Notes under the pieces: model-generated | Seen by the model: the letters and a program-made list of their open reading frames with translations, nothing else | The model's database searches: none | Told to the model about the DNA's origin: nothing | Assembly (NCBI GenBank): GCA_030688365.1 | Contig: JAUYIE010000005.1 | Span: forward strand, 5,764-69,763 | Direction of reading: 5' to 3' | Source of the DNA: a bacterium | Lineage (GTDB): Bacteria; Patescibacteriota; Patescibacteriia; JACQRZ01 | Length of the DNA: 64,000 nucleotides | Shown: positions 4,131 through 53,477 of the stretch, one piece after another | Position numbering within the stretch: position 1 is the stretch's first letter | Layout: every line of letters begins with the position of its first letter | Position numbers and translations under genes: made by a program

Positions 4131-4233
4131 AGGGTTTGGAAGGAATAATCGTATGGATACAATTAGTATTCATGTCTTTGTTGCAATAAATCGTTCTTAT
4201 AGTATACTGATTCTTGAAATCCGTAAATAGCAC

Positions 4234-6591
4234 ATGCATTGTATGCCCAAAAAAACAAGCATAGCGACAGCCAAAATATCAATTCCAGGGACTCAAAGCG
4301 ATGAGCTCTGTTATCTTTTCTCTCAGCAATTGGATGAACGAGACCCTCATTCTGATACAGTGTTTGGAATTTTTCAAATCCGAGCATCAAGTGAGGCCTA
4401 TCATAGCATAATTGAACACATCGTCAAACACCTCTTAGACTTCTATTATCGTGCTCAAGAAAATAAAGCAACCATGCATAATGAGCAGGCAGTTGGCGCT
4501 TCTGAATTTCTCTTTGAAAATGCCTTGCAATATGTGAATGATCAGGTCGTCAATATGATTGATGAACTACACAATTTTCCACAAGGACATGTGGCGATTG
4601 ACCGAACGCGTATTTCCTTATTGATTGGCGTGATATCAGGCGATGAACTATTTTTAACGAGTGCGGGAAATCTTGTGAAAGCGTATATGCTGTATCCTGT
4701 CAGTCGTAATGGTGTTTTTTCACATTATTCGGCCGTGACAATTTCAGATGATGAAAATCAAGAGCGTTACATTGATGCAAAAAAATTATTTACAAATGTC
4801 ATAGCGGGGACATTTGCCATTCCAGGCAGTACGCTTGTGGTAGCCAATGCACGATTCAATGACTACATACCTGTTGATCAGATCAAGCAAATTGTAACGA
4901 GTTATCCGTTTGATCATATCACGAAATATCTTTATAATTTACTCGGAAAAGCAAACGAAAATGCCGATTTTAATGCATTGTTTTTATCGCTACAGAAATC
5001 CGAGGCAACTGACACTTGGGGTGGTCGTCATCAGACACGATCTGATGATTCCATTAATGGTCTTGTAGAACAACAACGAAATACACAACATATTCTTTCA
5101 CCTGTAATAGCAATGCATATAAAAAAACAGGTGTCTCATTTTGTTGATCAGTATATTATCAAAACAGCCAAAGTTCTTCTTCAGCGCGTTAAGGAAGTTG
5201 ATTACAGAAAACATGCAAAGACAGCGCGAACATGGGGAAAACATGTGTCTATTCACGCCAGAAAAAGTGTCGGCCACTTGAAAAAAAATTACAAAAATCC
5301 ACTGCCCGTTATCAAACATGCAGCATCAGCAGTTTCGTCATCGCAATTTAAGACTTCAGCAATTGTCTTTCTTAAAAAATGGTCAAAGAAGATTTCTCAT
5401 AATTGCATTGAATTTTATTCATCTTTGAAAAAAAATGGCCCACGATACATCATTAGCTGGTTTAAGGGCTTAACGATGCTTTCCAAAAGTCTGTTGGTAT
5501 TGGCGATTATCTTTATTTTTTTATTTACAACGAGCATTATAACCTTACAAAGAAAGCGGGTAAATGAATCAACGCAACATGCGTATTCTCAACAAGTGGT
5601 GAGTATAGAAGAAAAAATTAATCAAGCAGAATCTAGTATGATATTTTCAGATGAGGAACATGCTATTCAGCTGTTGGCCCAAGCGCAGGATGACCTTACA
5701 GGATTGTCCAGGACATCTCCTGATAAGATCAAAACTGCAGATGAATTACAAACTCGTATCACGCGTGCTACGCAAAAGATTAATAAGATATATTCAGTAG
5801 AATCTACGATGGTAGCTAATTTTGATGGTCAAATACCCACACTAGACAACATTTCTATGCTTTCCACTGAAAACAAAACTATTGTCTACAATACTGAAAG
5901 TATTTATCTTTTGTCTTCAAACGACGGCTCTGTTCGTAAAATCAACACACAAGCAAAAATACCTAGCATTGGGTGTGGTGCATTTTTATCTGATGATCTA
6001 GTGTATTTTTGTGGTAAAGAAGGTGATCGTCTCTACGAGTTAAATCTAAAAAATAATGAAACGAAACAAGTAGCTATTTCACTGGCTAAAAACGAATCAT
6101 TACGACACATTACCTTTTATAGTGATCGGCTCTATGTCCTTGATGATACATCTGAGATAATATACCGCCACAGTAAAACAAATAATGGTTTTGGAGATCC
6201 TACAATCTGGTATCGGGGTGCCAACGCCACATCTCTGGCTGATGCGCGACAGATTTTGATTGATGGTGTTGCATATGTATATGAAGTTCCCGCAACACTC
6301 CTTCATATTTCAGGTGGAAAAGTTGTACCATTAGCGCTGACTGGAATTGAGCCGCCCCTTACCTCTATAGACAAATTTTGGATATCTGAAAGATCTACGT
6401 CCTTATATGTGCTTGATAAGACAAATCAACGAATCGTCATTTTTGATAAAAAAACTTTAAAAATAATTGGCCAGCTCACTAGTGATATTTTTTCAGAAGC
6501 AGAGTCCTTCAGTGTATTAGAAACTAAAATGAAAATTTTTGTTTTGACTTCGCATGGTGTTTATAGTATTCCTTTGGATTATCTGAAATAG
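4234..6591 (+). CDS. Large hypothetical membrane protein (cytoplasmic N-domain, central TM, repeat-containing extracytoplasmic C-domain)
   Basis: 785 aa ORF; TM segment LLVLAIIFIFLFTTSIITL; C-terminal YVLD-type repeats suggest a beta-propeller; start uncertain. Confidence 0.45.
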   Translation: MHCMPKKTSIATAKISIPGTQSDELCYLFSQQLDERDPHSDTVFGIFQIRASSEAYHSIIEHIVKHLLDFYYRAQENKATMHNEQAVGASEFLFENALQYVNDQVVNMIDELHNFPQGHVAIDRTRISLLIGVISGDELFLTSAGNLVKAYMLYPVSRNGVFSHYSAVTISDDENQERYIDAKKLFTNVIAGTFAIPGSTLVVANARFNDYIPVDQIKQIVTSYPFDHITKYLYNLLGKANENADFNALFLSLQKSEATDTWGGRHQTRSDDSINGLVEQQRNTQHILSPVIAMHIKKQVSHFVDQYIIKTAKVLLQRVKEVDYRKHAKTARTWGKHVSIHARKSVGHLKKNYKNPLPVIKHAASAVSSSQFKTSAIVFLKKWSKKISHNCIEFYSSLKKNGPRYIISWFKGLTMLSKSLLVLAIIFIFLFTTSIITLQRKRVNESTQHAYSQQVVSIEEKINQAESSMIFSDEEHAIQLLAQAQDDLTGLSRTSPDKIKTADELQTRITRATQKINKIYSVESTMVANFDGQIPTLDNISMLSTENKTIVYNTESIYLLSSNDGSVRKINTQAKIPSIGCGAFLSDDLVYFCGKEGDRLYELNLKNNETKQVAISLAKNESLRHITFYSDRLYVLDDTSEIIYRHSKTNNGFGDPTIWYRGANATSLADARQILIDGVAYVYEVPATLLHISGGKVVPLALTGIEPPLTSIDKFWISERSTSLYVLDKTNQRIVIFDKKTLKIIGQLTSDIFSEAESFSVLETKMKIFVLTSHGVYSIPLDYLK

Positions 6592-8962: not shown

Positions 8963-9997
8963 TTATGGGGCGATGGATGGCAAATACTTCCTCTTATTTG
9001 CCAAGTGTTCTTCGTATGTTTTGCTATAAATTGCGTTTCCTTGTCTATCAGTCAAAAAATAAAGATACGGTGTTTTTGTATAGTAAATAACCGACTTGAT
9101 GGATGCAAGACCGGGATTATCAATAGGACCTGGTGGTAAACCTGTATGTTTGTAGGTGTTATATGGTGAATCTGATGCAACATCATCAAATGTTGGTTGT
9201 GCCATACTTTTTCCCGTTACGTAATTCACCGTTGCATCGGAGCCCAAAGTCATACCCAGCGCCATGCGTTTATAAAAAATACCCGCTACAATAGCACGAT
9301 CTTCATCTGTAGCTACTTCTTTCTCCACAATCGATGCCAAAGTAATTACATCAAAAATTGTCCGTTTTTGTGCGACAATATCATCACGCATCTGCTGAGT
9401 AAACTTGATATCAAAATTTTCGAGCATGGCGTTTATAATATCATCAGCAGTGGCATCTGGATAAACCCGATACGTATCGGGAAAAAGATATCCCTCCAAC
9501 GTGGCGGTCCTTGGTAGATCAACAAGAAATGGATATTCGTCTTTGGGTACTTGCTGTGTAGCTTGTAAAAAGGTTGCCCCAGCCGGATGCCCTTGTTCTT
9601 TTAAATACTCACCAAACCCTGCACCGGTAAGCCCTTCACGAAATGTCAATGTCACTTCCGGTACGTATTGTGGTTTTGTCATAGTATGTACCACCGATGA
9701 AAGTGTAACCTTACCTGCGAACGAATATGTGCCTGCCTGCAAATGTCCATCGTTACCGGTAATAAAAAGATAAACACCAGCTAAAAACGGATTACTGATG
9801 ATATGATTATCATGAAGAAAAGCCAAGGTTTCAGAACCACGCTGCCCTGGGGGTACGACAACTTCTACTTCATGTTGGATGGAATGTGGTATAAACCAAA
9901 CATACAGCGCATAAACCCCATACAATACTATGATCAAACTTCCGATAGTTAAAAATCGTCTTGCAAAAAAACGAAAAATGGTCATGAAAACAGTCAC
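8963..9997 (-). CDS. mltG: Endolytic murein transglycosylase MltG (YceG family)
   Basis: N-terminal TM; YceG motifs SPYNTYKHTGLPPGPIDNPG and EKEVATDEDRAIVAGIFYKRMALGMTLGSDATV. Confidence 0.85.
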   Translation of the reverse strand: MTVFMTIFRFFARRFLTIGSLIIVLYGVYALYVWFIPHSIQHEVEVVVPPGQRGSETLAFLHDNHIISNPFLAGVYLFITGNDGHLQAGTYSFAGKVTLSSVVHTMTKPQYVPEVTLTFREGLTGAGFGEYLKEQGHPAGATFLQATQQVPKDEYPFLVDLPRTATLEGYLFPDTYRVYPDATADDIINAMLENFDIKFTQQMRDDIVAQKRTIFDVITLASIVEKEVATDEDRAIVAGIFYKRMALGMTLGSDATVNYVTGKSMAQPTFDDVASDSPYNTYKHTGLPPGPIDNPGLASIKSVIYYTKTPYLYFLTDRQGNAIYSKTYEEHLANKRKYLPSIAP

Positions 9998-10567: not shown

Positions 10568-11621
10568 TAAGTATAAGCAAGAAAAACCCTATCAAGTGAG
10601 CGGTATTTTCCGCATTTTTTGGCATCGGCTTTCCGCGAAGTTTTTCAATTATGGCAAATAATGCTCTTCCCCCATCTAATGCCGGAAGAGGAAGAATGTT
10701 CAAAATTGCCAAACTTAAGGACAATTGAACCATAAACAGTAGAATATACGCAAAACCTTCCCGCATTGCAACCCCTGTATATGCCGCGATGCCGACTGGA
10801 CCTGAAAAATCGCTAAATACCATAGTCTGAAATGCATGAATCAAGAACACAATGATGGTGTAGATCATCATTGCAACCGCTGAAAATGCAACGGGAATTG
10901 ATTGAAAAAATGAATACGAAACTATACCACCATCAGTTAGAGCTACTCCAAGACCAGCTTTTTGCACAGTAATCTCGTTCCCATTCTCGTCTTGTGATTG
11001 GAATGCTATTGTCCCAATTGTTGGCGTAACTACATGTTCCTCTTTTCCTCTTTTCAGTACCATATTTAGTTTTTTACCCCCGCTATCAGACAAATATGTG
11101 GTAACTTCACTGTATGTAGAGAATTCATTTCCGTCGATACTGATAATCTTATCATTGGGTTGTATATCCACCATTGATGCTGCTGTATCAGGTAAAACAC
11201 TTGTGACTACAACAGCGCGATCGCGAATTGTGCCTGTACCATCATAATCAGTCACATCAGCCGGCATACCAATGTTAAAACCAATACACATTAATATAAT
11301 TGCCAATAAGACATTCATTCCCACTCCAGCTGACAAGATAATAAGACGTTTCCATATAGCTTTTCCCGCAAAACTATCCTCATCTTTTGCATCTTCGCCT
11401 TGTTCCCCTTTAAGACGCACAAAACCACCCAAAGGAAGCCAATTTATAGTAAACATGGTCTTTTTACCCTGAATTTTCGCTGCGCGAGGAGGAAAACCAA
11501 TCGCAAATTCATCTACATGAACACCAAAAAGTCGGGCACTAATAAAATGTCCCCATTCATGCGCGATCACCAATATACTGAGAATTAAGACAAATACAAT
11601 TATCGTCAAAAAAATCATCAT
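10524..11621 (-). CDS. rseP: RIP metalloprotease RseP (site-2 protease)
   Basis: HEWGHF (HExxH), PDZ domain, LNILPLPALDGG motif. Confidence 0.85.
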   Translation of the reverse strand: MMIFLTIIVFVLILSILVIAHEWGHFISARLFGVHVDEFAIGFPPRAAKIQGKKTMFTINWLPLGGFVRLKGEQGEDAKDEDSFAGKAIWKRLIILSAGVGMNVLLAIILMCIGFNIGMPADVTDYDGTGTIRDRAVVVTSVLPDTAASMVDIQPNDKIISIDGNEFSTYSEVTTYLSDSGGKKLNMVLKRGKEEHVVTPTIGTIAFQSQDENGNEITVQKAGLGVALTDGGIVSYSFFQSIPVAFSAVAMMIYTIIVFLIHAFQTMVFSDFSGPVGIAAYTGVAMREGFAYILLFMVQLSLSLAILNILPLPALDGGRALFAIIEKLRGKPMPKNAENTAHLIGFFLLILIVILATVKDVRALF

Positions 11622-29116: not shown

Positions 29117-29157
29117 TTCAAACGGTATGCATCGTGCAAGCATGGCATAAAACAAAC

Positions 29158-29193
29158 TCCGAGGGCAGAAATGCCCTTGGTGTTGTTGTTTTG
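29158..29193 (+). terminator. Intrinsic terminator after 28559..29116
   Basis: CCGAGGGCA-GAAA-TGCCCTTGG 9 bp stem with GAAA loop followed by TGTTGTTGTTTTG. Confidence 0.6.
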
Positions 29194-29560
29194 AATAAAA
29201 AAAATAGGAGTAGTAAGACTCCATTGATTCAAAATTAATAATTTTTTTAGCTGGAAGGATCTTTTTGATGCTTCACTGGCTTTTTTGGGGGCGAAATGAG
29301 GTATTGGAAAAAATCATCCATTTTATCTGGAAATATATTTCCAGCATTACTTCCATCCAATATCTCCACAATACTTTTTTTTCTTTCTCTTTCTTCTGTC
29401 ATTTTTTACTTTACCTTTCGATCGTTACCTTGCTTACTCAAGGTTTCGCTAATATAATATAAAAATAGTATATGTAGTCCGGTAACCGATGTCAAGAATA
29501 TACAATACACGTATTAAAAAAGCATTCTCATATATGAGAACACCTTTTCGATTGGTGCAA

Positions 29561-29977
29561 TTAATATTCCTGATAATCTTTTGTTGCAAAACGCTTGTTT
29601 ACGCGTTGTGCAACGGCAGACAGAACATCCTTGTCACCTTGAGAGAGTTTGTTATATCTCTCTCCCCATTTTTCTTTTACAGCATCTTCAACTCTATATT
29701 GCCGATATCCTGGTCCATGTCGGATTAGGTACCCATATTCACACAGTTCGTCTATATGATGCCCAAGCTGTGAGTTATACAAATCAGAATCATATTGCCA
29801 CTGATGAATAAATGTGGGTATGTTTGTTATCGGATTTCTCTTCAAATCGACAAAGATTATCTGCCATATTTTGTCATGTGGCATCAAATCCACATTATTT
29901 ACACTACACTGCCCCATATGGTTATCGCGTAGTAGCAACACCATATCAAAAAAATCCTGTAACATTGATATTCCCAT
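29561..29977 (-). CDS. Hypothetical protein (possible mobile-element cargo)
   Basis: Start set at ATG 29977 (MGISMLQ) preceded by strong RBS AAAGGAGGT; no family assignment. Confidence 0.4.
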   Translation of the reverse strand: MGISMLQDFFDMVLLLRDNHMGQCSVNNVDLMPHDKIWQIIFVDLKRNPITNIPTFIHQWQYDSDLYNSQLGHHIDELCEYGYLIRHGPGYRQYRVEDAVKEKWGERYNKLSQGDKDVLSAVAQRVNKRFATKDYQEY

Positions 29978-30196
29978 ATCAACCTCCTTTTTATTCCCCA
30001 TTGAATAAAATGAACAATATCGACAACCCGAATATAGCACAATAGGTTATTTTTGCAAGCTAGGACGGTAGTGGACTTAAATTTTTGGCACCAAGTCACA
30101 AAACCAAAATCCCTTTGTAACAACGTTTAGAGGTAGTCTGCAATCACTGCCTGATTTTACCTCAAGTGGTTTATATACATGTTCACCAACTAAAAA

Positions 30197-30411
30197 ATGG
30201 ATTTTGTTTTTGAATTCAGGGAAAAAATGGGGTTGGGTTCAGGCGGGCTCCAAAACCCTCAAGCCCCCAAAGGGGGCGAAAGAGGAGACATATACACAAA
30301 CCTGTCTCTCCTGAACGAAATCCGAACTTTTTTTCAAAAAAATCCAGACGCGGAATTTTAAACTGGTGACATGGCGGAATTCCCCCCACACCCCCCTTCC
30401 GCCATGTTTTT
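30197..30411 (+). repeat. Structured ~215 bp repeat, copy A (direct); ends in terminator-like hairpin plus T5
   Basis: Near-identical to reverse complement of 32466..32680 and to 34161..34264; hairpins GCCCCC-AAA-GGGGGC, GGAGACA..TGTCTCC, CATGGCGGAA..TTCCGCCATG+TTTTT. Confidence 0.8.
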
Positions 30412-30451
30412 GTGTAGGACATTTTTTTGGCTCGCAAGAGGGTAATCAAGT

Positions 30452-31282
30452 CTATCTCTCTAATTTTTTATTATTCTCTTTCTCAAGTTTTTTCTTTTCT
30501 TTTTTCAATTCTTTGATATGCCGTTCGGGAGGTAAATTTTCAGGTAAAATGCCACCAATATCCTTGATCGTCTGTCGTACTTTTCCGCCAACCATATTGT
30601 GAGTATTGATGGCATCCCTCTCCGAATCAACCTCATCTTTTTTAAGCTTTGAATCGGTTTGGGTAATACGAAAAAGATTTGCCGCCAATTCGGTCGAACC
30701 CGATCTGTCTAGTAGTTCTCCCTTCTTAATCCCCTTTCTTATTTCAACATCACCAAGAGGCATACCATACAGACCACTATACCCTGCATCATTGAATACC
30801 CCAAAGTGGGTCACGCCTGCCTGTCGAGCTGTTTTTGCCAGCTTTTTGTTCTGATTACTGACCTCGTCACGAATAAATAATCGTTTTTCGTTTAGACTCA
30901 TCTCCTCAAATAATTCTTGCTTTCTTGTCTGTAGAGCAAAGTATGTCTGCGCAAGTGCAATTTCCGTTTTTGACGGATCGCCATTTTGAGCTATCAAATA
31001 ACACGCATAGCGATCAAGCTTGTAATCATCCACTTTTCTCATGGTATTTGAACCGATCGAGACCATTTTGCTGATATCAGCAAAATGGTTATCCACAGCC
31101 TGTCCGCTCTGAATACAAGCCCGTGCCGCTTTTGCGATAACTTCTGCAAAATTTCTCCATTGAGCATAATCAAGCAAGCTCATCAATTCGCGAGCTGTCC
31201 AATACTCAATCCCATTCTCGTCAATTTTTTTAATGCTCTCAAAATCCTTGTGTGGACTTGAGGGCAGTAGCTCATGTGGCAT
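30452..31282 (-). CDS. dinD: DNA damage-inducible protein D (DinD)-like protein
   Basis: WTARELMSLLDYAQWRNF, RYACYLIAQNGDPSKTEIALAQTYFALQTRKQEL, GSTELAANLFRITQT closely parallel E. coli DinD (recalled from memory); start at ATG 31282 or upstream 31369. Confidence 0.65.
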   Translation of the reverse strand: MPHELLPSSPHKDFESIKKIDENGIEYWTARELMSLLDYAQWRNFAEVIAKAARACIQSGQAVDNHFADISKMVSIGSNTMRKVDDYKLDRYACYLIAQNGDPSKTEIALAQTYFALQTRKQELFEEMSLNEKRLFIRDEVSNQNKKLAKTARQAGVTHFGVFNDAGYSGLYGMPLGDVEIRKGIKKGELLDRSGSTELAANLFRITQTDSKLKKDEVDSERDAINTHNMVGGKVRQTIKDIGGILPENLPPERHIKELKKEKKKLEKENNKKLER

Positions 31283-31392
31283 ATTTAGTATTTGACTATG
31301 AACTATTATTACATCCGATGGTACCATGTTTAGATAACAAAGGATGTTCCCGTACTGGCAAACAATCAATATTGCGTTCCCATTTGAGTAAT

Positions 31393-32280
31393 CTACTTTT
31401 CAACACTACCGAGTCTATATCCTATTGTTCGTCCCTTCTTACCTTCAGAAAAAAGTACTGTGGGGCCTCCAGCAAAGAACTCAAGTGGCGCAAGTTTTGA
31501 AATCGCTTTGAACAAATCTAAGCTAGTGGAATAAACCAATTTCTCAATTTCAGGATTATACCCATCATAATATACTGCCACCTTTTTGGGACCTTCCAGA
31601 TTTTCACTATCAGGATATTCTTCATTAACTTTATATTTCTCATACCTATCATCCAGTTTTTTAAATACCATACTACGCCTAGCGTAAGAAAAGGAAATTA
31701 TATTCTTTTCTTTATGTAAAGCAATATAGATAGGCAAAAGCATTTGATCATTCTCAATTATCAATGTTGTCTGTCTATCCCCATCACACATCTCCTTAAT
31801 AATGTCATCAGAATTAATGAGATTGTCATTGGGAATTAATTTCAATTTTTCGATTGAGGGTATTTCTATATCTCCTAATTTCTGGTTTATATCCCGCATG
31901 GCTATTCTAATATCTTTATAGGCAACGAGACCAGTTTTTTCTCCACAGTGTTCTTTGAAAACCTCAATTATTTTAGAAGCTTCTATGTCTTTCACGTTTA
32001 TTGCGACATCGAAATTACTAAATGATAGAAACTTCTCCAATTGACTTTCGTGAGACTCATTCTCACGACCCCATAATGTAGCATAAATTTCTGCCATTTT
32101 ATCGGTATCCAAGTCGTCACCATTTAAATATAAATATCTTCCATTGTCTTCAATCACATAATCTCTAACCTTTTCAAGTCTATCTACATACTCCTGCGAA
32201 ACCTCGCCTTCAATTTTCAAACCGTGCTTGTCTGTATCTAATGCATTTACATTATTAGGTTGTTCAAATTTTGGATCCAT
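31393..32280 (-). CDS. Hypothetical protein co-transcribed with dinD-like gene
   Basis: 295 aa ORF, 24 nt upstream of dinD-like; no recognisable motif. Confidence 0.4.
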   Translation of the reverse strand: MDPKFEQPNNVNALDTDKHGLKIEGEVSQEYVDRLEKVRDYVIEDNGRYLYLNGDDLDTDKMAEIYATLWGRENESHESQLEKFLSFSNFDVAINVKDIEASKIIEVFKEHCGEKTGLVAYKDIRIAMRDINQKLGDIEIPSIEKLKLIPNDNLINSDDIIKEMCDGDRQTTLIIENDQMLLPIYIALHKEKNIISFSYARRSMVFKKLDDRYEKYKVNEEYPDSENLEGPKKVAVYYDGYNPEIEKLVYSTSLDLFKAISKLAPLEFFAGGPTVLFSEGKKGRTIGYRLGSVEK

Positions 32281-32465
32281 AAAATTTAATATTAATAATG
32301 TTCAGATATTACTATAAAACCTAAACGACTCATGGCCATCATAAAATAATCTTTACTCACACTATGACATAAACTTGTGTTTAATACAACAGTCCTAATT
32401 TGGATTAGCGCAGTCATTTCTTTCTTGCAAACTCTCCTTAAAAAGCATATCGTTAGTAATATAAA

Positions 32466-32700
32466 ACCATGGCGGAAGGGGGGCGTGGGGGGAATTCCGC
32501 CATGTCACCCATTTTAGAATTCCGCGTCTGGATTTTCTTGAAAAAAAGTTCGGATTTCGTTCAGGAGAGACAGGTGTGTGTATATGTCTCCTCTTTCGCC
32601 CCCTTTGGGGGCTTGAGGGTTTTGGAGCCCGCCTGAACCCAACCCCATTTTTTCCCTGAATTCAAAAACAAAATCCCATGGTTTGTTGAAATCCACTTTC
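32466..32700 (-). repeat. Structured repeat, copy B (inverted relative to A)
   Basis: Reverse complement ~97% identical to copy A over ~215 bp including the terminal hairpin; lies ~190 nt upstream (same orientation) of 31393..32280. Confidence 0.8.
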
Positions 32701-32758
32701 CACCTATGGCGGAAACATCCAAAGCGACATACAACATAATTCATAGCCTCCAAGCGAT

Positions 32759-34324
32759 ATGAATACGTTCTTTCTCTACGCTCGCAAGTCAACAGATGAG
32801 CCAGATCGTCAGATATTGAGTATTGAAGCCCAGATCACCGAGCTTCGCGAATTTGCCCAACGAGAACATCTTGATATTGTGGATACATTTATCGAATCCC
32901 AAACAGCAAAAGAACCGGGGCGTCCCATATTCAACAAAATGCTTGATCTCGTAGAGAAAGGTGGTGCAAATGGAATTTTGGCGTGGCATCCCGATAGACT
33001 CGCTCGCAACAGCGTTGATGGGGGGCGCGTAATTTATCTCACCGACACGAGAAATCTCACTGACCTCAAATTCCCTACCTTTTGATTTGATGCCACGCCA
33101 CAGGGCAAATTCATGCTCAATATCGCTTTTGGACAGAGTAAGTACTATGTGGATAATCTCTCGGAGAATGTGAAACGAGGATTACGGCAAAAAGTACGGC
33201 GTGGTGAACAAGTTGGGCGAGCACCGATGGGATATCTCAATGATCTTGTCGCCAAGAAAATGATACCCGACCCCCTACGCTTTCACCTTATTCACAAAAT
33301 GTTTGAACTGTATGTGACTGGTAATTATTCTTTGAAATCCCTCCGAGAGATTATCTTTGAGAAAGGACTGATGAGTGGAACAGACAAAAAGCTCTCTATT
33401 TCGATGATACAAAAAATACTCACCAATCCGATGTATTATGGTGCCTTTCTTTTTAACGGAGAGCTTTTTGCTGGCACTCATGAGCCATGCGTGTCAAAAA
33501 AACTGTTTGATGGAGTGCAAAGTATTCTGACAAGCAAAACAAACCCCAAGAAGCGAGGCGAGAAGCAGTATCCCCTACGAGGATTGTTTGTATGCGGTGA
33601 ATGTGGGTGCAGTATCACGTCAGAAACGCATAAAGGACATGACTACTATCGATGCACCAAGAAAAGGGATGCAAAATGCTCACAGAAATATATTCGAGAA
33701 GAGCTTCTCGCCCAGCAACTATCAACAATAATTCAAAACGTTTCTTTGCCAAAAGATTGGACGGACAATATACTTGAGCAACTACAAACGGAGAAATCGG
33801 ATACCGCCCAATCTGATGCCCTATTCGCTCAAACAATTAAGGATGAGGTAAAAGTATATGAAAACAAGCTTGATACCTTGCTGGACGCACACCTTGAGCA
33901 ACTCATCACGAGAGAAGAATATACCACCAAGAAAAACAAAGTATTGTCTCAAAAGATGGACTTAGAGCAAAAACTAAAGGATTTTGAGCGAAAGGGCAAC
34001 GCATGGCTCGAACGTACTCGTGCGTTCATAAATGCTTGTATCCAAGCGGAAAATGTCGCTTTGGATGAAAATATTTTTGCAAAAAAAGATTTTCTGAAAA
34101 AACACGGCTCGAACCACCTCCTCACTGACAAAACGGCTTGGGTGGATTTTCTCGCACCATGGGATTTTGTTTTTGAATTCAGGGAAAAAATGGGGTTGGG
34201 TTCAGTTGGGATTCAAAACCTTCACGCCCCCAAAGGGGGCGAAAGAGGGGGCATATACACACACCTGCGGGACATGGACTCGAACCATGATACCATCCTC
34301 CAGAGGGATGTGTCCTACCATTAG
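32759..34324 (+). pseudogene. Large serine recombinase interrupted by an in-frame TGA at 33083-33085; C-terminal ~60 codons run through repeat C and tRNA-Gln antisense and are probably not native
   Basis: Resolvase catalytic domain YARKSTDE...SIEAQ...ESQTAKEPGRP; same frame continues after TGA: FDATPQGKFMLNIAFGQSKYYVDNLSENVKRGLRQK, recombinase domain, Cys zinc ribbon CGECGC...YYRC, coiled coil; functional part ends near 34140. Confidence 0.75.
34141..34264 (+). repeat. Structured repeat, copy C (partial, direct), abutting the 3' end of tRNA-Gln
   Basis: Shares ~110 bp core with copies A and B but lacks the terminal hairpin; fused directly to tRNA-Gln. Confidence 0.75.
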
Positions 34325-34335
34325 ACGATCCCGCA
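34265..34335 (-). tRNA. tRNA-Gln (anticodon CTG), U1-A72
   Basis: Minus strand TGCGGGA-TC-GTCT-AATGGTA-GGAC-A-CATCC-CTCTGGA-GGATG-GTAT-CATGG-TTCGAGT-CCATG-TCCCGCA-G. Confidence 0.85.
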
Positions 34336-34358
34336 GGTCTATGTACATGTTATGACTT

Positions 34359-35441
34359 CTACTCTCGTATACATCCTTTCACAATCGCGACTTCAATAGG
34401 CAGTTGTGGCAAAGAAAACCACCGCGCATCCTTTTGTGCCGCCATCCAATGACTGACAAGCGCGAGGATATCTCTCATGCTAAGCAATGTCGCGAGTTCT
34501 GTGAGACTTTTTTCCGTCGTTTCATCCGTATCCACAAGATTGGTCACATTATTTTTATATAACATGATATTGCGCAAGTACTCTATCATATCCCCCACAA
34601 ACACATCAAGATCAACACCATTGTCAATCAACTCCTGTACGATAGCCAATGCTTGTTCATTGCGCTTATGACTTATCGCATCAGCAAGTCGACGCACAGC
34701 GACGTGATCTGTGCGTGGCAACAGCGCAGAGGCAAAATCGTACGTGATCGTATCCCCCAGTGAAAATATCTGTCCCAGCAAACTTTCTGCATCCCGCTGG
34801 CAACCTTGCGAAAGTCGCACAATCTCATTGATCACCTCTTTTTCAACACTCTTTTTTTCTTTTTTTGCAATAAGCATCAAGCGGGCAAACATCTGCTTGG
34901 CAGGAATCTTTTTAAAATCAAACCGTTCGCATCGGGAAATAATAGTAGGCGGTACCTTATGCAACTCTGTCGTAGCAAGGATAAAAACAACATGAGACGG
35001 TGGTTCTTCAATAAGTTTGAGTAGGGCATTAAAGGCAGAGATGGAAAGCATGTGCACTTCATCAATGATAAACACCTTATTCGTAAGTTGCGTGTGAGCT
35101 ACTTTTGCCGTTGCAATGATGTTATCTCGAACATTATCAACGCCAGTGTTGGATGCGGCATCAATCTCAATAATATCTAAACTTCGATGCTCCAAAATAG
35201 AAAGACATGGTTCACACTCATTGCACGGCTCTGGGACGCCTGTTTTACGTTTGATGCAGTTGATAGCGCGCGCAAACACTCTCGCAGTCGTGGTCTTTCC
35301 CACTGCGCGGGGCCCAGCAAACATGTACGCATGTGCAATACTTCCTCTACTGATTTCGTTTTCCAATGTCATCTTGATGGGCTCTTGCCCTATGATATCG
35401 GCAAACAACTGCGGACGATATTTTCTATAGAGAGCGCTCAT
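34359..35441 (-). CDS. dnaX: DNA polymerase III subunit gamma/tau (short form)
   Basis: FAGPRAVGKTTTARVFA Walker A, zinc module CNECEPC, DEVHML, SRC; 360 aa. Confidence 0.85.
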   Translation of the reverse strand: MSALYRKYRPQLFADIIGQEPIKMTLENEISRGSIAHAYMFAGPRAVGKTTTARVFARAINCIKRKTGVPEPCNECEPCLSILEHRSLDIIEIDAASNTGVDNVRDNIIATAKVAHTQLTNKVFIIDEVHMLSISAFNALLKLIEEPPSHVVFILATTELHKVPPTIISRCERFDFKKIPAKQMFARLMLIAKKEKKSVEKEVINEIVRLSQGCQRDAESLLGQIFSLGDTITYDFASALLPRTDHVAVRRLADAISHKRNEQALAIVQELIDNGVDLDVFVGDMIEYLRNIMLYKNNVTNLVDTDETTEKSLTELATLLSMRDILALVSHWMAAQKDARWFSLPQLPIEVAIVKGCIRE

Positions 35442-35443
35442 GG

Positions 35444-36322
35444 CTAAAACTTTTTAATAATATTTTCTACCGCAGCCCATTGTGTTGACTTATCCCGAGG
35501 GATCAGGATCACTACTTCATCACCGGGTACGCCTTTGAAATACGTAACGCTGGCAGTCAGCACGCGCCATACCTGTCCTTCGCCTTTTACCACAAACGTA
35601 TGTGTTTCCTCATCTGTTTCCAGTATGCCTATCACTCTGCGACGTGCAATCGGCCCTATTTGTTTATAAATAAACGATCCATTGTGACTAATGGTCAATT
35701 TTAGTATATCACCTTCTACGAGTTTTGATTTGGAGGCATAGTTGGGTGGTATAGAATACTGTTTACCATCCGGCCCGACCATCCCCTGCCCGTCAAACAT
35801 TCCTTCAAGGATATTTCCCTCATCGCCGTTGTTATCAATATGTGCCGGTGCAGTTCCAGGATGAAAAATATGCCGTGTCGTATCAATCGCCATACCAGGT
35901 ACGAGTTGTGAGAGTTGTGAAAATCGTGCAGCATCGTGAGTACCCATAGGTGTACCATCGCTTGCCAACTCTTCACTCAACAAATCAATCGCTTTTTGTG
36001 CGTTCTTTTTTATATCTTCAAGTGTGTGTTTTAAAAGTTCCAAACGCGGGTGTGCAGAGGGTTGTGTTATAGAGGCGGGAGCGACAGGAGTGGACGGATG
36101 AGCTACGGGATCTACAGCATCTGTTGGTTGTATTGTCACTTCCGTGTCGCTTAGCATCTCTTTTTCTATATCAGAAAGCGCATCATCAAGACTTTTTTCG
36201 CTTGGATGTTCAGATGAGACGACACTGGGAGTGGTAGTTGGTAAGGGGGTAGTTGGGGGATCATTAGGTGTTATGTTACCCAGATTTTGCTGTTTCGGAA
36301 AAAACCAGAATGGATCTGACAT
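35444..36322 (-). CDS. Pro/Thr-rich hypothetical protein with C-terminal beta domain
   Basis: Low-complexity PTTPLPTTTP linker; C-terminal FVVKGEGQVWRVLTASVTYFKGVPGDEVVI. Confidence 0.3.
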   Translation of the reverse strand: MSDPFWFFPKQQNLGNITPNDPPTTPLPTTTPSVVSSEHPSEKSLDDALSDIEKEMLSDTEVTIQPTDAVDPVAHPSTPVAPASITQPSAHPRLELLKHTLEDIKKNAQKAIDLLSEELASDGTPMGTHDAARFSQLSQLVPGMAIDTTRHIFHPGTAPAHIDNNGDEGNILEGMFDGQGMVGPDGKQYSIPPNYASKSKLVEGDILKLTISHNGSFIYKQIGPIARRRVIGILETDEETHTFVVKGEGQVWRVLTASVTYFKGVPGDEVVILIPRDKSTQWAAVENIIKKF

Positions 36323-36408: not shown

Positions 36409-38979
36409 CTACTCCTCTTCTCCGCTCTGATCGTCCTCATCTTCATCTTCGTCGTCTGGAGTCTCATGTTTGGCGCGCCGTAAGATTTCACGCTCCACCA
36501 ATTCACGATCTCTCCCATATTTGAGTTGAGATAGCTGACCGATCGCATTTGCGATTTCGTCGTCACCGGCAGTTGGCGCAAACGTACGCATATTAAACGG
36601 GCGCGCAGCCGTTCCATTAATCAGTAAACGCACATACGCGTGTGTACGCTCTATATTTATTACATCAAACTCATTAAACACAGGTGCCATTTGTTTTGCA
36701 ATCAATTCGGCATCATCCACACCCACGCGAAAGTTGACAATCGTTCCTACGTTTCCAAATACTGCATCACGAACTTTGGTATCGCCAGTCTTTGGTGTAA
36801 GTTGTGCAATATATTGATGCCCGATAGTCAAACACAGACGGTATTTACGCGCCTCTGACAAAATAATCGCAATGCTGTCAGTGATAAAATTTTGAAACTC
36901 GTCAATATACAAGAAAAAATCTTGACGTTGCTCCGGATCCGCGATATCACCACGCGACAATGCGGCCATGGTTATTTTACCTACCATAATCAATCCTAAA
37001 AGATACGCGTTAAGATCGCCCAACTGCCCTTTGCTCAATTTCACTAACAAAATCTTTTTTTGATCCATGACCTCGCGCACATTAAATGCGCTTGTCTGTT
37101 GTCCAATGATCGGACGCATGATGTCATTGGATACAAATTGATTCAATTTTGAAGTAATATAGGGCACCATATTGGCAAGAGCCGCTTCACCGCCTGCTTT
37201 TTGCGCTTCCTTTACCCAAAAATCACTCACGACGGAATTTTTACATTTTGACAACTTATATGATCTAAACTCTTCATCAGCCAACACTTTTGAAACTTCC
37301 ATAAGTGTAGACCCTGACTCGGGATCCTCCATGATTAAAAGTAACGCATTACGCAAATATTGTTCAAACATCGGCCCGCCAGTGGCTCGCAAATCATACA
37401 GTTTATCCAAAATCATCACAAACTCATTGATAACGAACGTTTTTTGTTCGGGATATTTCGGATCAAACTCCAAAAGATTCAGCCCCTTAGGACGCTGGTA
37501 ATCAGCAGGATCAAACAAAATCACATCATCAGCTCGCTCCGGTGGTACCAGAGAAAGAATATGATCAACCGCTTCACCATGAGGATCAATAAAGCAACAA
37601 CCTTCTCCATTTTTGATATCCTGAATAATCATGTTTTCCATCAATGTTGTTTTTCCCGAGCCAGTCATACCGATGACATACGTGTGTCTACGACGATCAT
37701 CGCGAAGCATGTGTACTGGCGTTGCCGTACCTCTATATACATTTTCTCCCAACAATACCCCTTCCTGTGGCATATTGACGGGAGGTGGAGCACTGCGTGA
37801 TTTGAGCCAATCAATATTGGGTGTCTCGGTTGTACTTAATGGCAAATGAAAAATACTCGCCAATTCCTCGGCATTTAAAATAAAACAATGACGCGCGTCA
37901 AAATGGCGATAAATTGAATGTTCCACCATTGCTGATTTTGGTATCCTCTTATTTTTAACCAATGCGATATTTGATTCCGGGCCAGTATATTGCGCAAATG
38001 AATTGACTACATTGTATACTTGCATATCTGCCAATTCTTGTGTTTGTGCAGATCCGATAATACGTATATTCACTTGAAAGCCCGCCTTTGATCCTTTTTC
38101 CTCAACTACTTTGACTAATTCTTGTTCTAGAGGAGACATACGATATTCAGGAGAGGGATGTGCCGTGTTTTTACCTGTTGATCTTAATATGTCTACCGTG
38201 GTACCCCCTGCAGTATTTAAAGCACCCCATGCAATATCGCCTATTGAACCGACATGTGCCGCCTGCATCGCCTCTTTAACACTTTTTCCTTTCTGCATTT
38301 CGCGAGCAAATGCTTGTCCTTTTGTGCGCCATCCTCGTGGAGCAGTACGGATAGTCATTTGCAATATGATACCTTGTCCTTGTCCCGCCTTACTCAATGC
38401 GTTGGTCAATGCATTGAGTGGGTCAGAATCCATTTTGCGATACGTCCGTAATGGAAAAACCCAATGCCTGTTCAGCTGCAATGTAGCCGCTGCGACACTG
38501 CCATGCGGTAAAAAAATATTATAATCCGGCGTTTCTTCAATCTGCGCCGAAGGATATTGGGCGAGCAACTGTTGTTCAAAAAAACTTTGCAAATAATCGG
38601 GAACAATAGCAAAAAATTTAATAAGTCCGTCAATGGCGACAATTTCAAATGTAATTTCATCTTCCCGACCCAAAAAAAATGCTTTAAATATATCGCGCGA
38701 TCGCATTCCACCAAGACCTAAATACAGAGATTCAGCAACGGCTACCACTTCTTGATATTCTCCCTTTCCTCCTTTATCTTCTTCTTCTCCCTTTGACCCC
38801 TCCTTAGAAACGCGCAATTGAAAGACTTTTTTATGCAATGCATTGTGCGCAATATGCTGACGAACAAGAATCGCGCGGATTATCATCACAACCAAAACTA
38901 TTACAAGACATATCAGGATTGTCCACCAGAAAGTGGCAAAGAGGATATTGGTGGCAATAAGGTTGCTGATGACGTCCAT
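36409..38979 (-). CDS. Membrane-anchored VirD4/TraD-like AAA ATPase (type IV coupling-protein-like, DUF87/TrwB-type)
   Basis: N-terminal TM helices; Walker A GMTGSGKTT; Walker B LYIDEFQNF; acidic C-terminal tail. Confidence 0.5.
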   Translation of the reverse strand: MDVISNLIATNILFATFWWTILICLVIVLVVMIIRAILVRQHIAHNALHKKVFQLRVSKEGSKGEEEDKGGKGEYQEVVAVAESLYLGLGGMRSRDIFKAFFLGREDEITFEIVAIDGLIKFFAIVPDYLQSFFEQQLLAQYPSAQIEETPDYNIFLPHGSVAAATLQLNRHWVFPLRTYRKMDSDPLNALTNALSKAGQGQGIILQMTIRTAPRGWRTKGQAFAREMQKGKSVKEAMQAAHVGSIGDIAWGALNTAGGTTVDILRSTGKNTAHPSPEYRMSPLEQELVKVVEEKGSKAGFQVNIRIIGSAQTQELADMQVYNVVNSFAQYTGPESNIALVKNKRIPKSAMVEHSIYRHFDARHCFILNAEELASIFHLPLSTTETPNIDWLKSRSAPPPVNMPQEGVLLGENVYRGTATPVHMLRDDRRRHTYVIGMTGSGKTTLMENMIIQDIKNGEGCCFIDPHGEAVDHILSLVPPERADDVILFDPADYQRPKGLNLLEFDPKYPEQKTFVINEFVMILDKLYDLRATGGPMFEQYLRNALLLIMEDPESGSTLMEVSKVLADEEFRSYKLSKCKNSVVSDFWVKEAQKAGGEAALANMVPYITSKLNQFVSNDIMRPIIGQQTSAFNVREVMDQKKILLVKLSKGQLGDLNAYLLGLIMVGKITMAALSRGDIADPEQRQDFFLYIDEFQNFITDSIAIILSEARKYRLCLTIGHQYIAQLTPKTGDTKVRDAVFGNVGTIVNFRVGVDDAELIAKQMAPVFNEFDVINIERTHAYVRLLINGTAARPFNMRTFAPTAGDDEIANAIGQLSQLKYGRDRELVEREILRRAKHETPDDEDEDEDDQSGEEE

Positions 38980-52887: not shown

Positions 52888-52996
52888 ATATCACCACTGT
52901 ACTCCTCGTAAGCAATTTTGTATAGAACTGTGTTTATTCATCTTCCTGTGGGCAATTGCGGAGAACCAAAGAGATACTAGGTGGGGAGATAATTGG

Positions 52997-53104
52997 TTTG
53001 AGCCGACTCCGCAAGGGAAATTCATGTTTCAAGTGGCGTTTGGGCAGAGTAAATATTTTTCAGATAGTCTTGTTGAAAATGTAAAACGGAGCTCGGTCTT
53101 GTAA
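52997..53104 (+). pseudogene. Relic of a second large serine recombinase (internal fragment)
   Basis: Translates FEPTPQGKFMFQVAFGQSKYFSDSLVENVKRSSVL*, clearly homologous to FDATPQGKFMLNIAFGQSKYYVDNLSENVKRGL of 32759..34324; no intact ORF around it. Confidence 0.5.
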
Positions 53105-53402
53105 AAAGAAAGTGGGAACATGAGGCAATTTCTTCAAGAGGAGACGTTGTTCAAAATCTTAAAGTTAATATTAAAGAGACAGGTACTCTATTCTTCTATC
53201 AAATACCAAATATCAATATTTCATTCTATCCCTATCAACAGGGTTACCAAAACAGCAAAATGGACAAAGACAAAACCCTTTCAATACATTGGGGTGAACT
53301 CTGGGATTTTACAAGGGAAACAAAGGCGGATTTTGAATGCAGGGGCGGGGCGTACGCGCCAGATGGCGCGATGGATTTTGAAAAAAATAATCTTGTAACT
53401 CT

Positions 53403-53477
53403 TGGTAGTCCCACGGGGAATCGAACCCCGATTTGGTCCGTGAGAGGGACCCGTCCTAACCGTTAGACGATGGGACC
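53403..53477 (-). tRNA. tRNA-Glu (anticodon CTC), CCA encoded
   Basis: Minus strand GGTCCCA-TC-GTCT-AACGGTTA-GGAC-G-GGTCC-CTCTCAC-GGACC-AAAT-CGGGG-TTCGATT-CCCCG-TGGGACT-A-CCA; G1-U72 wobble. Confidence 0.8.

Follow-up and report, generated by a model that had tools for sequence, protein, structure and literature searches.

The window analysed here, a 64 kb stretch of DNA, holds a small island at positions 30199-34267 next to a tRNA-Gln(ctg) gene (34264-34336, minus strand; ARAGORN, Rfam 58.2 bits), its probable integration target, which is intact and 100% identical to the tRNA of the closest relative, locus L001. The right part of the island is occupied by a large serine recombinase (LSR) gene (32759-34267, plus strand) with the Pfam domains Resolvase, Recombinase and Zn_ribbon_recom, and its open reading frame continues through the antisense strand of the tRNA as far as 34324. 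An in-frame TGA at 33083-33085 (TGG>TGA) falls where homologues carry a conserved Trp, among them an intact homologue (P0001) that is 88% identical and has W at this codon. TGA serves as a stop in 4 of the 33 long open reading frames of the window, and we consider the island a fossil because of this nonsense mutation in its LSR. Once the TGA was repaired to W, the protein matched PF00239 (E=9e-22), PF07508 (E=8e-13) and PF13408 (E=1e-11). The order of resolvase, recombinase and zinc-ribbon domains is that of serine integrases, and the length of about 500-520 aa is not that of the small serine invertases (about 190 aa). The best PDB match was the SPbeta integrase (E=1e-5, residues 6-231), and identity to phage integrases does not exceed 30%.

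To the left of the LSR lie two cargo genes on the minus strand. The first (30452-31279) encodes a DinD-like protein (DNA damage-inducible protein D; Bro-N) matching NCBIfam NF008573 (E=3e-106), Pfam Bro-N and PADLOC PDC-S13 (E=4e-108), and we regard it as a candidate defence gene. The second (31393-32280) encodes a protein of 295 aa that gave no match in Pfam, NCBIfam or PADLOC.

The repeat is the 3' end of the recombinase gene

The sequence-only reading had described a structured repeat in three copies. Local BLASTN and a repeat search bore this out and moved the boundaries to 30199-30411 (copy A, plus strand), 32463-32696 (copy B, minus strand, inverted) and 34142-34267 (copy C, plus strand). 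A and B form an inverted pair of the identity that had been estimated (about 97%), with 30199-30411 matching 32463-32676 at 96.7% over 214 nt (E=4e-99). Copy C at 34162-34267 matches A directly at 91.5% over 106 nt (E=6e-39), and at 34142-34267 it matches B in inverted orientation at 89.7% over 126 nt (E=3e-44); B and C share 20 nt on their upstream side that are absent from A. Copy C was also rightly placed against the tRNA, since its end at 34267 overlaps the 3' end of tRNA-Gln(ctg) by 3-4 nt. BLASTN detected no additional copy in the 64 kb window beyond A, B and C. A supposed resemblance at 29283-29305 came down to a 10-mer plus 4 nt across an indel; given that we estimate about 26 10-mer matches to the unit by chance in the window, and that the BLASTN list for the unit holds many 11-16-mers, we treated it as chance. 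The GC fraction of the repeat (about 0.48-0.50) is indeed above that of the AT-rich cargo (0.30-0.42) and equals that of the recombinase gene and the host background.

The 56-codon open reading frame noted within the repeat exists, but it codes for the C-terminal stretch of the adjacent recombinase. Copy C supplies the C terminus of the LSR in frame, and A and B encode the same tail, a relation that the sequence-only reading had overlooked. In tblastn comparisons with the recombinase, B corresponds to residues 462-521 and A to residues 469-521 only, the body of the recombinase being absent upstream of A. Homologues of the LSR number in the thousands and end either in a native tail of the form ...W[L/R]xxLxx[I/V]RTxFxxNP or, after the W codon, in translated antisense tRNA; a native or native-like tail was present in about 15-20% of the database homologues inspected, and both types of tail occur inside clusters of 90% identity. 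The tail is under coding constraint, with R in 47 of 47 and F in 46 of 47 sequences, codon-position entropies of 1.06, 0.65 and 1.24, and a saturated third position in its Pro codon. The repeat is thus the 3' end of the LSR gene together with the gene's own terminator, and not a free-standing RNA element.

Read in the direction of the gene, the unit (U) consists of a P arm (35-42 codons leading up to the crossover, with a GC hairpin), a core, a P' arm, a stop codon and an intrinsic terminator, the P' arm holding the last 17-18 codons (SLLNEIRTFFxxNPDAEF) with the heptamer TCCGAAC inside. Copy A, on the plus strand, begins with what appears to be a relic P arm (30199-30304; the last 35 recombinase codons before the crossover, a gene-side arm of 105 nt) with its GC hairpin at 30263-30277 and the core CCTG at 30301-30304. 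It continues in the P' arm that makes up the left end of the island (30305-30411; tail codons SLLNEIRTFFQKNPDAEF), with a T-loop-like heptamer (TCCGAAC, 30321-30327) offset by 16 nt relative to the core, a stop codon at 30359-30361 and a terminator hairpin (30370-30379 / 30397-30406) followed by T5 at 30407-30411. Copy B, on the minus strand, is a complete inverted attP-like unit: its T-run (reverse complement) lies at 32463-32467, its terminator at 32468-32504, its stop at 32514-32516, the heptamer of its P' arm at 32549-32555, its core at 32571-32574 and its P arm at 32575-32696 with the hairpin at 32598-32612, ending 63 nt upstream of the recombinase start. In copy C (plus strand) the hairpin lies at 34225-34241 and the core CCTG at 34264-34267 joins the P arm to tRNA-Gln; homology to A and B ceases at the tRNA end, and copy C reads as a recombined hybrid site made of a P-type half and a tRNA half. 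The hairpins listed in the sequence-only reading exist, and in the window GGAGACA-N12-TGTCTCC flanks the crossover core on both sides. The P arm of A shares 99% identity with its counterpart in B and about 90% with the one in C.

A further resemblance, beside tRNA-Glu, also proved real. A second, heavily decayed member of the family spans 52964-53477, with a fragment of a second recombinase at 52964-53092 (plus strand; tblastn E=6e-11 to 3e-14) and a P-arm-like relic that runs up to tRNA-Glu(ctc) (53403-53477, minus strand).

Related islands and the attachment-site module

About 60 related loci in Patescibacteria share one order: host DNA joined to a P' arm, cargo, an inverted full copy, the LSR, and a P arm joined to an antisense tRNA. 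The three-copy layout, an unusual one, extends to thousands of Patescibacteria islands of this kind. Sixty-one of the 80 genome loci have, 27-260 nt before the LSR, an inverted copy of its 3' end that measures 75-178 nt and has a median identity of 99.3%. This copy extends into P' and flank, which recur in inverted orientation at the distal end of the island after 1.3-8 kb, and its arms usually match the two island ends at 97-100% identity; the lineages that share its position have only about 48-65% protein identity. No start codon for the inverted copy was consistent across the family, and copy B is therefore not an independent gene. The closest relative, L001, combines a clean host/P' left junction, an inverted middle copy (9663-9937) and a tRNA-Gln junction. 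In relatives the P' arm at the left end meets host DNA directly. Of the window's two junctions, the right one (C) is a hybrid of element and host halves, whereas at the left one (A) a relic P arm stands in place of host sequence.

At 59 genome loci the contig includes the junction, and ARAGORN called an antisense tRNA in 44 of these; the target tRNAs among family loci are those for Ser, Gln, Ala, Asn, Gly, Tyr, Leu and Asp. The end of the repeat overlaps the tRNA 3' end by 4-8 nt in these loci. Comparison of the right junction, middle copy and left junction at the 21 loci that have all three gave a common core of 4-11 nt, to which the crossover is narrowed and which is the acceptor end of the tRNA; in the window the core CCTG corresponds to the discriminator and the last acceptor-stem bases of tRNA-Gln. 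The distance from the core to the T-loop heptamer of this tRNA (CTCGAAC, 34279-34285) is 11 nt, compared with 16 nt for the heptamer of A and B; at 36 of 38 loci the P' heptamer shows the same extra 5 nt relative to its counterpart in the tRNA half (4 nt in the other 2 of 38). In serine integrases the zinc-ribbon motif is shifted by 5 bp between attP and attB (Rutherford et al. 2013; PMC3783163), and the offset in the window and the family has the published direction, with the motif nearer the centre in the attB-type site (PMC3783163). The family-wide attP dyad score was not above background, and no convincing dyad partner of the P' heptamer was found in the P arm.

The repeat is very probably the attachment-site module of a small integrative island that is moved by its LSR and inserted at a tRNA gene, so that of the possibilities raised by the sequence-only reading the att-arm sequence of an element family is the one that we retain: an attP-type site of a tRNA-targeting LSR family, with C as the recombined junction. 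In the free, presumably circular element U would serve as attP, and the 3' end of the tRNA gene as attB. The zinc ribbon of the LSR may recognise NTCGAAC, the T-loop DNA of the tRNA half-site, and also that heptamer in P', where it lies 5 bp more distal. Integration would swap the last 17 codons of the LSR and its terminator for antisense tRNA sequence, which would give copy C, and would carry the P' arm to the far end of the island, where it would form the P' half of copy A. Copy B is the further complete U that the family keeps, in inverted orientation, directly ahead of the LSR gene, and it may have a role of its own. The 105-nt P arm of copy A is most simply seen as a probable relic of an earlier tandem element that was later homogenised with B; we added this gene conversion step because a simple tandem relic does not predict a P arm 99% like that of B and about 90% like that of C. 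The attachment-site model leaves the retention of the second inverted attP-like copy unaccounted for.

Excision by large serine integrases yields a circle and a restored attB and usually needs a directionality factor. We observed no circular form, circular contig or empty attB, and a viral scan gave only two family members; no directionality factor was evident in these small islands and we noticed no conserved accessory gene among the cargo. With the crossover 17 codons ahead of the stop, integration exchanges the conserved C-terminal helix (LxxIRTFFxxNP) and the terminator for antisense-tRNA sequence. A speculative and unlikely idea is that the family might thereby set its own directionality through changes to the recombinase gene itself, as a lock/unlock switch without a separate directionality factor. 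If so, excision or use of the second inverted attP would restore helix and terminator, and that retained copy would allow two integrated states at one tRNA: a recombinase with a swapped tail that runs antisense to tRNA read-through, or a native-tailed recombinase downstream of the tRNA, the conserved P-arm hairpin acting as a replacement 3' trailer for the tRNA in both.

Other explanations of the repeat

That the unit might be a structured cis-regulatory RNA (acting ahead of the cargo operon as a leader, an attenuator or a small RNA) was suggested by the terminator of copy B, which faces the cargo genes 183 nt upstream of them, and by the perfect GC-rich P-arm hairpin, whose structure is conserved while its stem sequences vary between lineages. 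Indeed a hairpin of the GCCCCC-AAA-GGGGGC type is present in 76% of 45 family P arms, compared with 7.7% of shuffles and 2% of other windows in the same genes, and it matches no described RNA family. We nevertheless hold a regulatory RNA to be very improbable. The terminator belongs to the recombinase gene, whose frame is conserved as protein across the family with constraint at the codon level; the cargo is wholly different between relatives; the P-arm hairpin has no T run on either side; and the positions of the copies are accounted for by site-specific recombination. An Rfam scan of the window brought only four tRNAs to gathering scores with no match for the repeat, and the fold of the whole unit was marginal (z=-2.0, 7 of 200 shuffles folding as well). 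The idea of a MITE- or IS-like dispersed non-autonomous element with terminal inverted repeats, which could draw on the inverted A/B pair enclosing a two-gene cassette beside a recombinase, is the least credible that we considered: the window has only three copies, all within the 4.1 kb of one island and each a piece of the recombinase gene's 3' end, their flanks show no target-site duplications, and relatives have their copies at the same three positions relative to the tRNA.

Inversion of the cassette by the recombinase had also been raised. Either the B-C segment (recombinase) or the A-B segment (cargo) might flip at the inverted copies, and a flip of the former would toggle a native tail and terminator against an antisense-tRNA tail as well as the orientation to tRNA read-through. 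Such a switch is compatible with the attachment-site explanation. The inverted arrangement is family-wide, with A and B flanking the cargo and B and C the recombinase as in inverted-repeat-bounded segments; the arms are about 100% identical within an element and divergent between lineages, which is concerted evolution; both tail types coexist among close homologues, as described above; and L082, from a different lineage, is the opposite isomer at the same tRNA-Gln/dnaX locus, with the order tRNA, inverted P, LSR with native tail, P', cargo, inverted P'. However, exact look-ups of the predicted flipped versions of specific elements found 0 of 17 in a collection of 15 billion proteins (2 of 3 controls were found), and a crude upstream-tRNA test identified a flipped isomer in 0 of 80 genome loci. 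A circle with two attP copies could produce both isomers just as well, according to which copy is used for integration; the published rules for serine integrases exclude recombination of attP with attL (PMC3783163); and in the window the enzyme is a pseudogene. We therefore think an invertible switch unlikely. Less likely still is that A and B are roleless dead remnants, 3' ends left over from successive insertions at one tRNA. Several features speak for it: the P arm of A is truncated and lacks a gene body ahead of it, the left-end P' of L014 adjoins a 393-nt fragment of an older recombinase, partial P arms occur at the left end in L014 and at other, metagenome left ends (L125, L126, L127, L162, L164, L177), and a second decayed member sits at tRNA-Glu. 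This fits the P arm of A but not copy B, since a complete inverted copy at one position across such divergent lineages, with arms usually near-identical to both island ends, disfavours an origin as random remnants.

Comparison with known systems

Large serine integrases cross over, with a 2-bp stagger, in the middle of an attP of roughly dyad symmetry. The family resembles those of phages (Listeria A118/LI integrase, phiC31, Bxb1, SPbeta SprA) in the order of Resolvase, Recombinase and zinc-ribbon domains with a coiled-coil-like insert, in short att sites with a small common core, and in an outer motif that, compared with the element half-site, lies 5 bp further inward in the host half-site. 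It differs in being only distantly related to them, in targeting tRNA 3' ends with the T-loop as the apparent recognition motif, in having its attP inside the enzyme's own reading frame, and in having a second inverted attP-like copy and no evident directionality factor; its carriers are islands of 3-10 kb in Patescibacteria rather than phages.

A parallel to an attP within an integrase gene is found in myxophage Mx8, whose attP reportedly lies within the 3' end of the integrase gene (intP/intX) and whose integration into a tRNA gene is said to rewrite the integrase C terminus. Mx8 reportedly uses a tyrosine integrase with extended att identity, whereas the enzyme here is a serine recombinase, and we know of no internal inverted attP copy described for Mx8. 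Recombinase genes beside or inside a segment bounded by inverted sites are found in Hin/hix, Gin/gix and the Flp/FRT system of the yeast 2-micron plasmid, and the free circle predicted here, with two inverted sites and two segments, would resemble the latter. Unlike Hin, Gin and Flp, the recombinase is of the large integrase type and the sites are attP and hybrid rather than identical simple sites.

The tycheposons of Prochlorococcus are likewise tRNA-associated, modular, cargo-carrying integrative islands, but overwhelmingly use tyrosine recombinases (a large serine recombinase being present in 27 of 937) and many carry replication genes; the part of the account available to us describes neither an attP inside the recombinase gene nor nested inverted repeats (bioRxiv 10.1101/2020.12.28.424599).

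The repeat as the end of a recombinase gene

In the window the structured repeat proved to be the attachment-site module of an integrative island that is now inactive. The existence of three copies, two of them an inverted pair, was confirmed by matches far above chance: copy A (30199-30411, forward strand) aligns with positions 32463-32676 of copy B (32463-32696, reverse strand) in inverted orientation at 96.7% over 214 nt (E=4e-99), and copy C (34142-34267, forward strand) aligns directly with A at 91.5% over 106 nt (C side 34162-34267, E=6e-39) and inversely with B at 89.7% over 126 nt (C side 34142-34267, E=3e-44). No fourth copy was found within the 64 kb window. Copy C is joined to a tRNA, as the sequence-only reading had it, ending at 34267 within the final bases of tRNA-Gln(ctg) (34264-34336, reverse strand). 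The ORF listing showed that C encodes, in frame, the C-terminus of the product of the gene at 32759-34267 (forward strand); this protein carries Resolvase, Recombinase and Zn_ribbon_recom domains and is thus a large serine recombinase (LSR). The 56-codon ORF noted earlier in A and B is real, but what it encodes is the LSR C-terminus run to its natural stop; it ends in SLLNEIRTFFxxNPDAEF and a stop codon, followed by a hairpin and a T5 terminator.

The LSR gene of the window contains an in-frame TGA (33083-33085) at a place that is Trp (FPTFWF) in all homologues, among them an intact one of 88% identity. Since TGA serves as a stop elsewhere in the window, we consider the gene a pseudogene; recoding of TGA was ruled out by this usage and by the long ORFs obtained under the standard code. 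A stand-alone structured RNA, as proposed from the sequence, found no support: the fold of unit A (z=-2.0) is not convincingly better than that of shuffles, and an Rfam scan of the whole window matched tRNAs only and nothing in the unit. The unit is indeed richer in GC (about 0.48-0.50) than the cargo genes (0.30-0.42), but no more so than the neighbouring recombinase gene and host DNA.

A family of tRNA-linked islands

One protein search scored 7,980 homologues; the bulk are unnamed or annotated as 'recombinase family protein' and come from Parcubacteria, Paceibacterota and other Patescibacteria. Two kinds of C-terminus were distinguished among them, either a native tail (...W[L/R]xxLxx[I/V]RTxFxxNP...) or, directly after the W codon, a translated antisense tRNA (..DSNP.., ..GFEP..), and both are found inside clusters of 90% identity. 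A third tail class (..VxxVRTxxxxNxxV[F/Y]IPNL.. or ..WESIRTNLTINSPIL) was seen in the proteins P0043, P0056 and P0123 and at locus L073; it is native-like without matching the native tail and may represent junctions with degenerate attP-like sites of other elements. Five 'double' recombinases of 865-911 aa were also observed (P0013, P0032, P0047, P0083, P0089), in which the first enzyme runs straight into the body of the second, beginning at a conserved AFGQSKYY motif, and which may be one element inserted into, or fused to, another.

Counts of family architecture rest on 80 fetched genome loci, 59 of them assessable at the tRNA junction. ARAGORN called an antisense tRNA there in 44 of the 59 (Ser 16, Gln 10, Ala 8, Asn 5, Gly 2, Tyr 1, Leu 1, Asp 1), the repeat end and the tRNA 3' end overlapping by 4-8 nt. 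The 3' end of the LSR gene, over a length of 75-178 nt, has an inverted copy that precedes the LSR start by 27-260 nt in 61 of the 80 loci; the median identity is 99.3%, and 39 of 58 intact loci reach at least 97%. On its own strand this middle copy passes the junction into the native tail and stop. Past the junction, a stretch of 150-310 nt (tail, terminator and flank) recurs in inverted orientation, usually at 97-100% identity, 1.3-8 kb further off, and this far repeat stops exactly at the junction with unrelated DNA beyond. A small divergent gene had been considered for B, a 76-aa gene being called in the closest relative (locus L001, GCA_023246095.1), and was rejected because in many family members the arm is not preceded by a start codon; with no consistent start, the middle copy is not a gene of its own.

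The middle copy is an intact, inverted attachment-site unit, which reads as a P arm (the codons before the crossover), a short core, a P' arm (the tail codons with a heptamer), the stop and the terminator. From the positions of the copies the family layout is host / core-P'-flank > cargo < flank-P'-core-P / LSR > P-core / antisense tRNA, and the two island ends together form one such unit divided at the core, which is what site-specific integration of a circle should produce. In the window A corresponds to the left-end P' arm, B to the middle copy and C to the right end; L001 shows the layout cleanly, with the host/P' junction at 4186, the middle copy at 9663-9937 and the right junction at 11509.

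L001 also lies at tRNA-Gln beside dnaX and its LSR shares 88% aa identity with that of the window. Comparison of window positions 32363-36050 with L001 9565-13301 gave 85-92% identity for the recombinase module, merely 72-74% for the host genes (dnaX and neighbours) and 100% for tRNA-Gln, while the cargo is completely different. The higher identity of the module speaks against vertical co-inheritance and indicates that the two hosts gained related elements with different cargo after diverging. In the window the cargo is a DinD-like protein (NF008573, E=3e-106; PADLOC candidate system PDC-S13) and a 295-aa protein without an assigned family, for neither of which homology to any fetched locus was found. 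The relatives carry restriction-modification genes, reverse transcriptase or a Schlafen/AlbA-type ATPase. In the host flank outside the island, an 856-aa ORF (36409-38979, reverse strand) is syntenic with an L001 gene that has DUF8128 matches and faint matches to TraG/VirD4-type coupling proteins.

The resemblance noticed beside tRNA-Glu also proved genuine, being a second, heavily decayed member of the recombinase family (52964-53477). Residues ~99-141 alone survive (52964-53092, E down to 3e-14), and a P-arm-like relic (..WDFTRETKADFECRGG..) extends to tRNA-Glu(ctc) at 53403-53477 (reverse strand).

Attachment sites, isomers and the history of the copies

That the repeat might be attachment-site sequence, one of several earlier suggestions, was borne out by its identity with the LSR gene end, the short cores and a 5-nt shift of the heptamer. 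When both junctions and the middle copy were aligned in 21 loci, a shared core of only 4-11 nt was left, which is the tRNA end and varies with the target (TGGCGG for Ser, TGGTGG for Ala, GGCTCCG for Asn, GCTG for Gln); in the window the sequence common to A/B and C extends through CCTG. The P' heptamer YYCGAAC reproduces the T-loop DNA found in the tRNA half-site (NTCGAAC), and its distance to the core exceeds that in the tRNA by exactly 5 nt in 36 of 38 loci and by 4 nt in the other 2 (16 nt against 11 nt in the window). Serine integrases have been shown to bind one zinc-ribbon motif in both site types, placed 5 bp nearer the centre in attB than in attP (Rutherford et al. 2013, PMC3783163). 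Because the heptamer shift matches this rule, the unit behaves as attP, the tRNA half as an attB-type half-site and C as a hybrid. We infer that the T-loop is the recognised motif, which would account for the wide range of tRNAs that a single family can target. A search for dyad symmetry around the core in 45 attP copies gave no centre clearly over background.

Across 47 distinct P' sequences the tail has an invariant Arg and a Phe in 46, the mean entropy by codon position is 1.06, 0.65 and 1.24, and the Pro codon outside the half-site is saturated at its third position. These constraints show that the tail is translated, presumably as the LSR C-terminus whenever P joins P'. Its Arg codon is nearly always CGA, which reveals an overlapping DNA-level constraint from the heptamer.

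The GC hairpin singled out in the sequence-only reading is structurally conserved in family P arms. It lies at 30263-30277, 32598-32612 and 34225-34241 in the window; in the family (loci L005-L081) 76% of 45 distinct P arms have a perfect GC-rich hairpin with lineage-specific stems at a distance of 26-54 nt from the core, the rate being 7.7% in shuffles and 2% in windows taken elsewhere in these genes. A canonical tRNA terminator is not supported, no T run following the hairpin in either direction. It could be a replacement 3' trailer of the tRNA, since the same P arm abuts the tRNA in both isomers of the element.

These isomers would arise because a circle excised from the family layout would bear attP twice, in inverted orientation, and two arrangements result depending on which of these sites is used to integrate. 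The second was found in L082, a relative at the same tRNA-Gln/dnaX locus as the window, with the order tRNA, inverted P, LSR with native tail, P', restriction-modification cargo and inverted P'. Inversion of the cassette had also been proposed earlier; there was no sign of in-place flipping of a given element, none of 17 predicted flipped proteins being present in a 15-billion-sequence collection by exact look-up (two of three controls were found), a weak negative since the look-up demands exact sequence identity. A viral contig scan gave only two family members, both at contig ends and uninformative on the free form. An operator role for B is unlikely as its core lies 130-400 nt from the LSR start. 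That the middle copy is universal and that its arms evolve in concert speaks for a function or a mechanistic need. Such concerted evolution within a genome is directly evident in L001, whose two P' copies (4240-4290, 9700-9750) share a ~50-nt insertion with a small hairpin between stop and terminator that is absent from A and B of the window. Repeat identity did not correlate with recombinase integrity, nearly all relatives being intact, those with arms of 82% identity and those with 100% alike. At L076 and L079 the P arms of one element differ in blocks typical of different lineages (..AVSYDFTKSENWR vs ..ATSFNFAECKTWR), which suggests module exchange between elements at the crossover.

Copy A departs from the family rule of host directly followed by P', as 105 nt of P arm precede its P' with no LSR body upstream. 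For metagenomes, a pattern spanning the crossover gave no matches and a broader P' pattern was used instead, yielding 80 loci; partial P arms of 13-27 codons were present in about 8 of 83 metagenome P' copies. At L014 a 393-nt older LSR fragment adjoins the left-end P'. The P arm of A is most simply read as left over from a previous element at this tRNA: a new element would have recombined with the resident junction, the old gene decaying afterwards. The P arm of A is, however, 99% like that of B and about 90% like that of C, which does not fit a relic without an extra step, and we therefore invoke gene conversion between the inverted A/B pair as a likely source of the resemblance. For the DNA left of A (29120-30198) no homology to any fetched locus was found.

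Relation to known integrases and islands

For the window itself the result is mostly a clarification, its copy being an inactive member of a large family. The mobile elements of Patescibacteria are poorly known, and these islands are probably a main vehicle for defence genes in them, holding as they do restriction-modification, reverse-transcriptase, Schlafen-like and DinD-like genes. Because an intact attP-like copy stays inside every integrated element, attP, attB, attL and attR can be read directly from a single genome locus, which does away with the difficulty usually met when serine integrases are mined for genome engineering.

Tycheposons (bioRxiv 10.1101/2020.12.28.424599) are tRNA-linked cargo islands of which a minority have serine recombinases. 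In the literature searched there was no description of serine integrases targeting tRNA 3' ends via the T-loop, of a serine integrase gene that contains its attP, or of three copies nested in this inverted arrangement. Three traits of the family stand out as apparently new: the targeting of many tRNA 3' ends, apparently by reading universally conserved T-loop DNA; a putative attP in the enzyme's own reading frame, so that recombination would alter the protein; and the intact attP-like copy retained in every integrated element. The enzyme is a genuine serine integrase, though a distant one, with the SPbeta integrase as its best PDB match (E=1e-5) and 30% identity or less to phage integrases. 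Myxophage Mx8, which has a tyrosine integrase, is a known case of an attP within the integrase gene, whose C-terminus is rewritten when the phage integrates into a tRNA.
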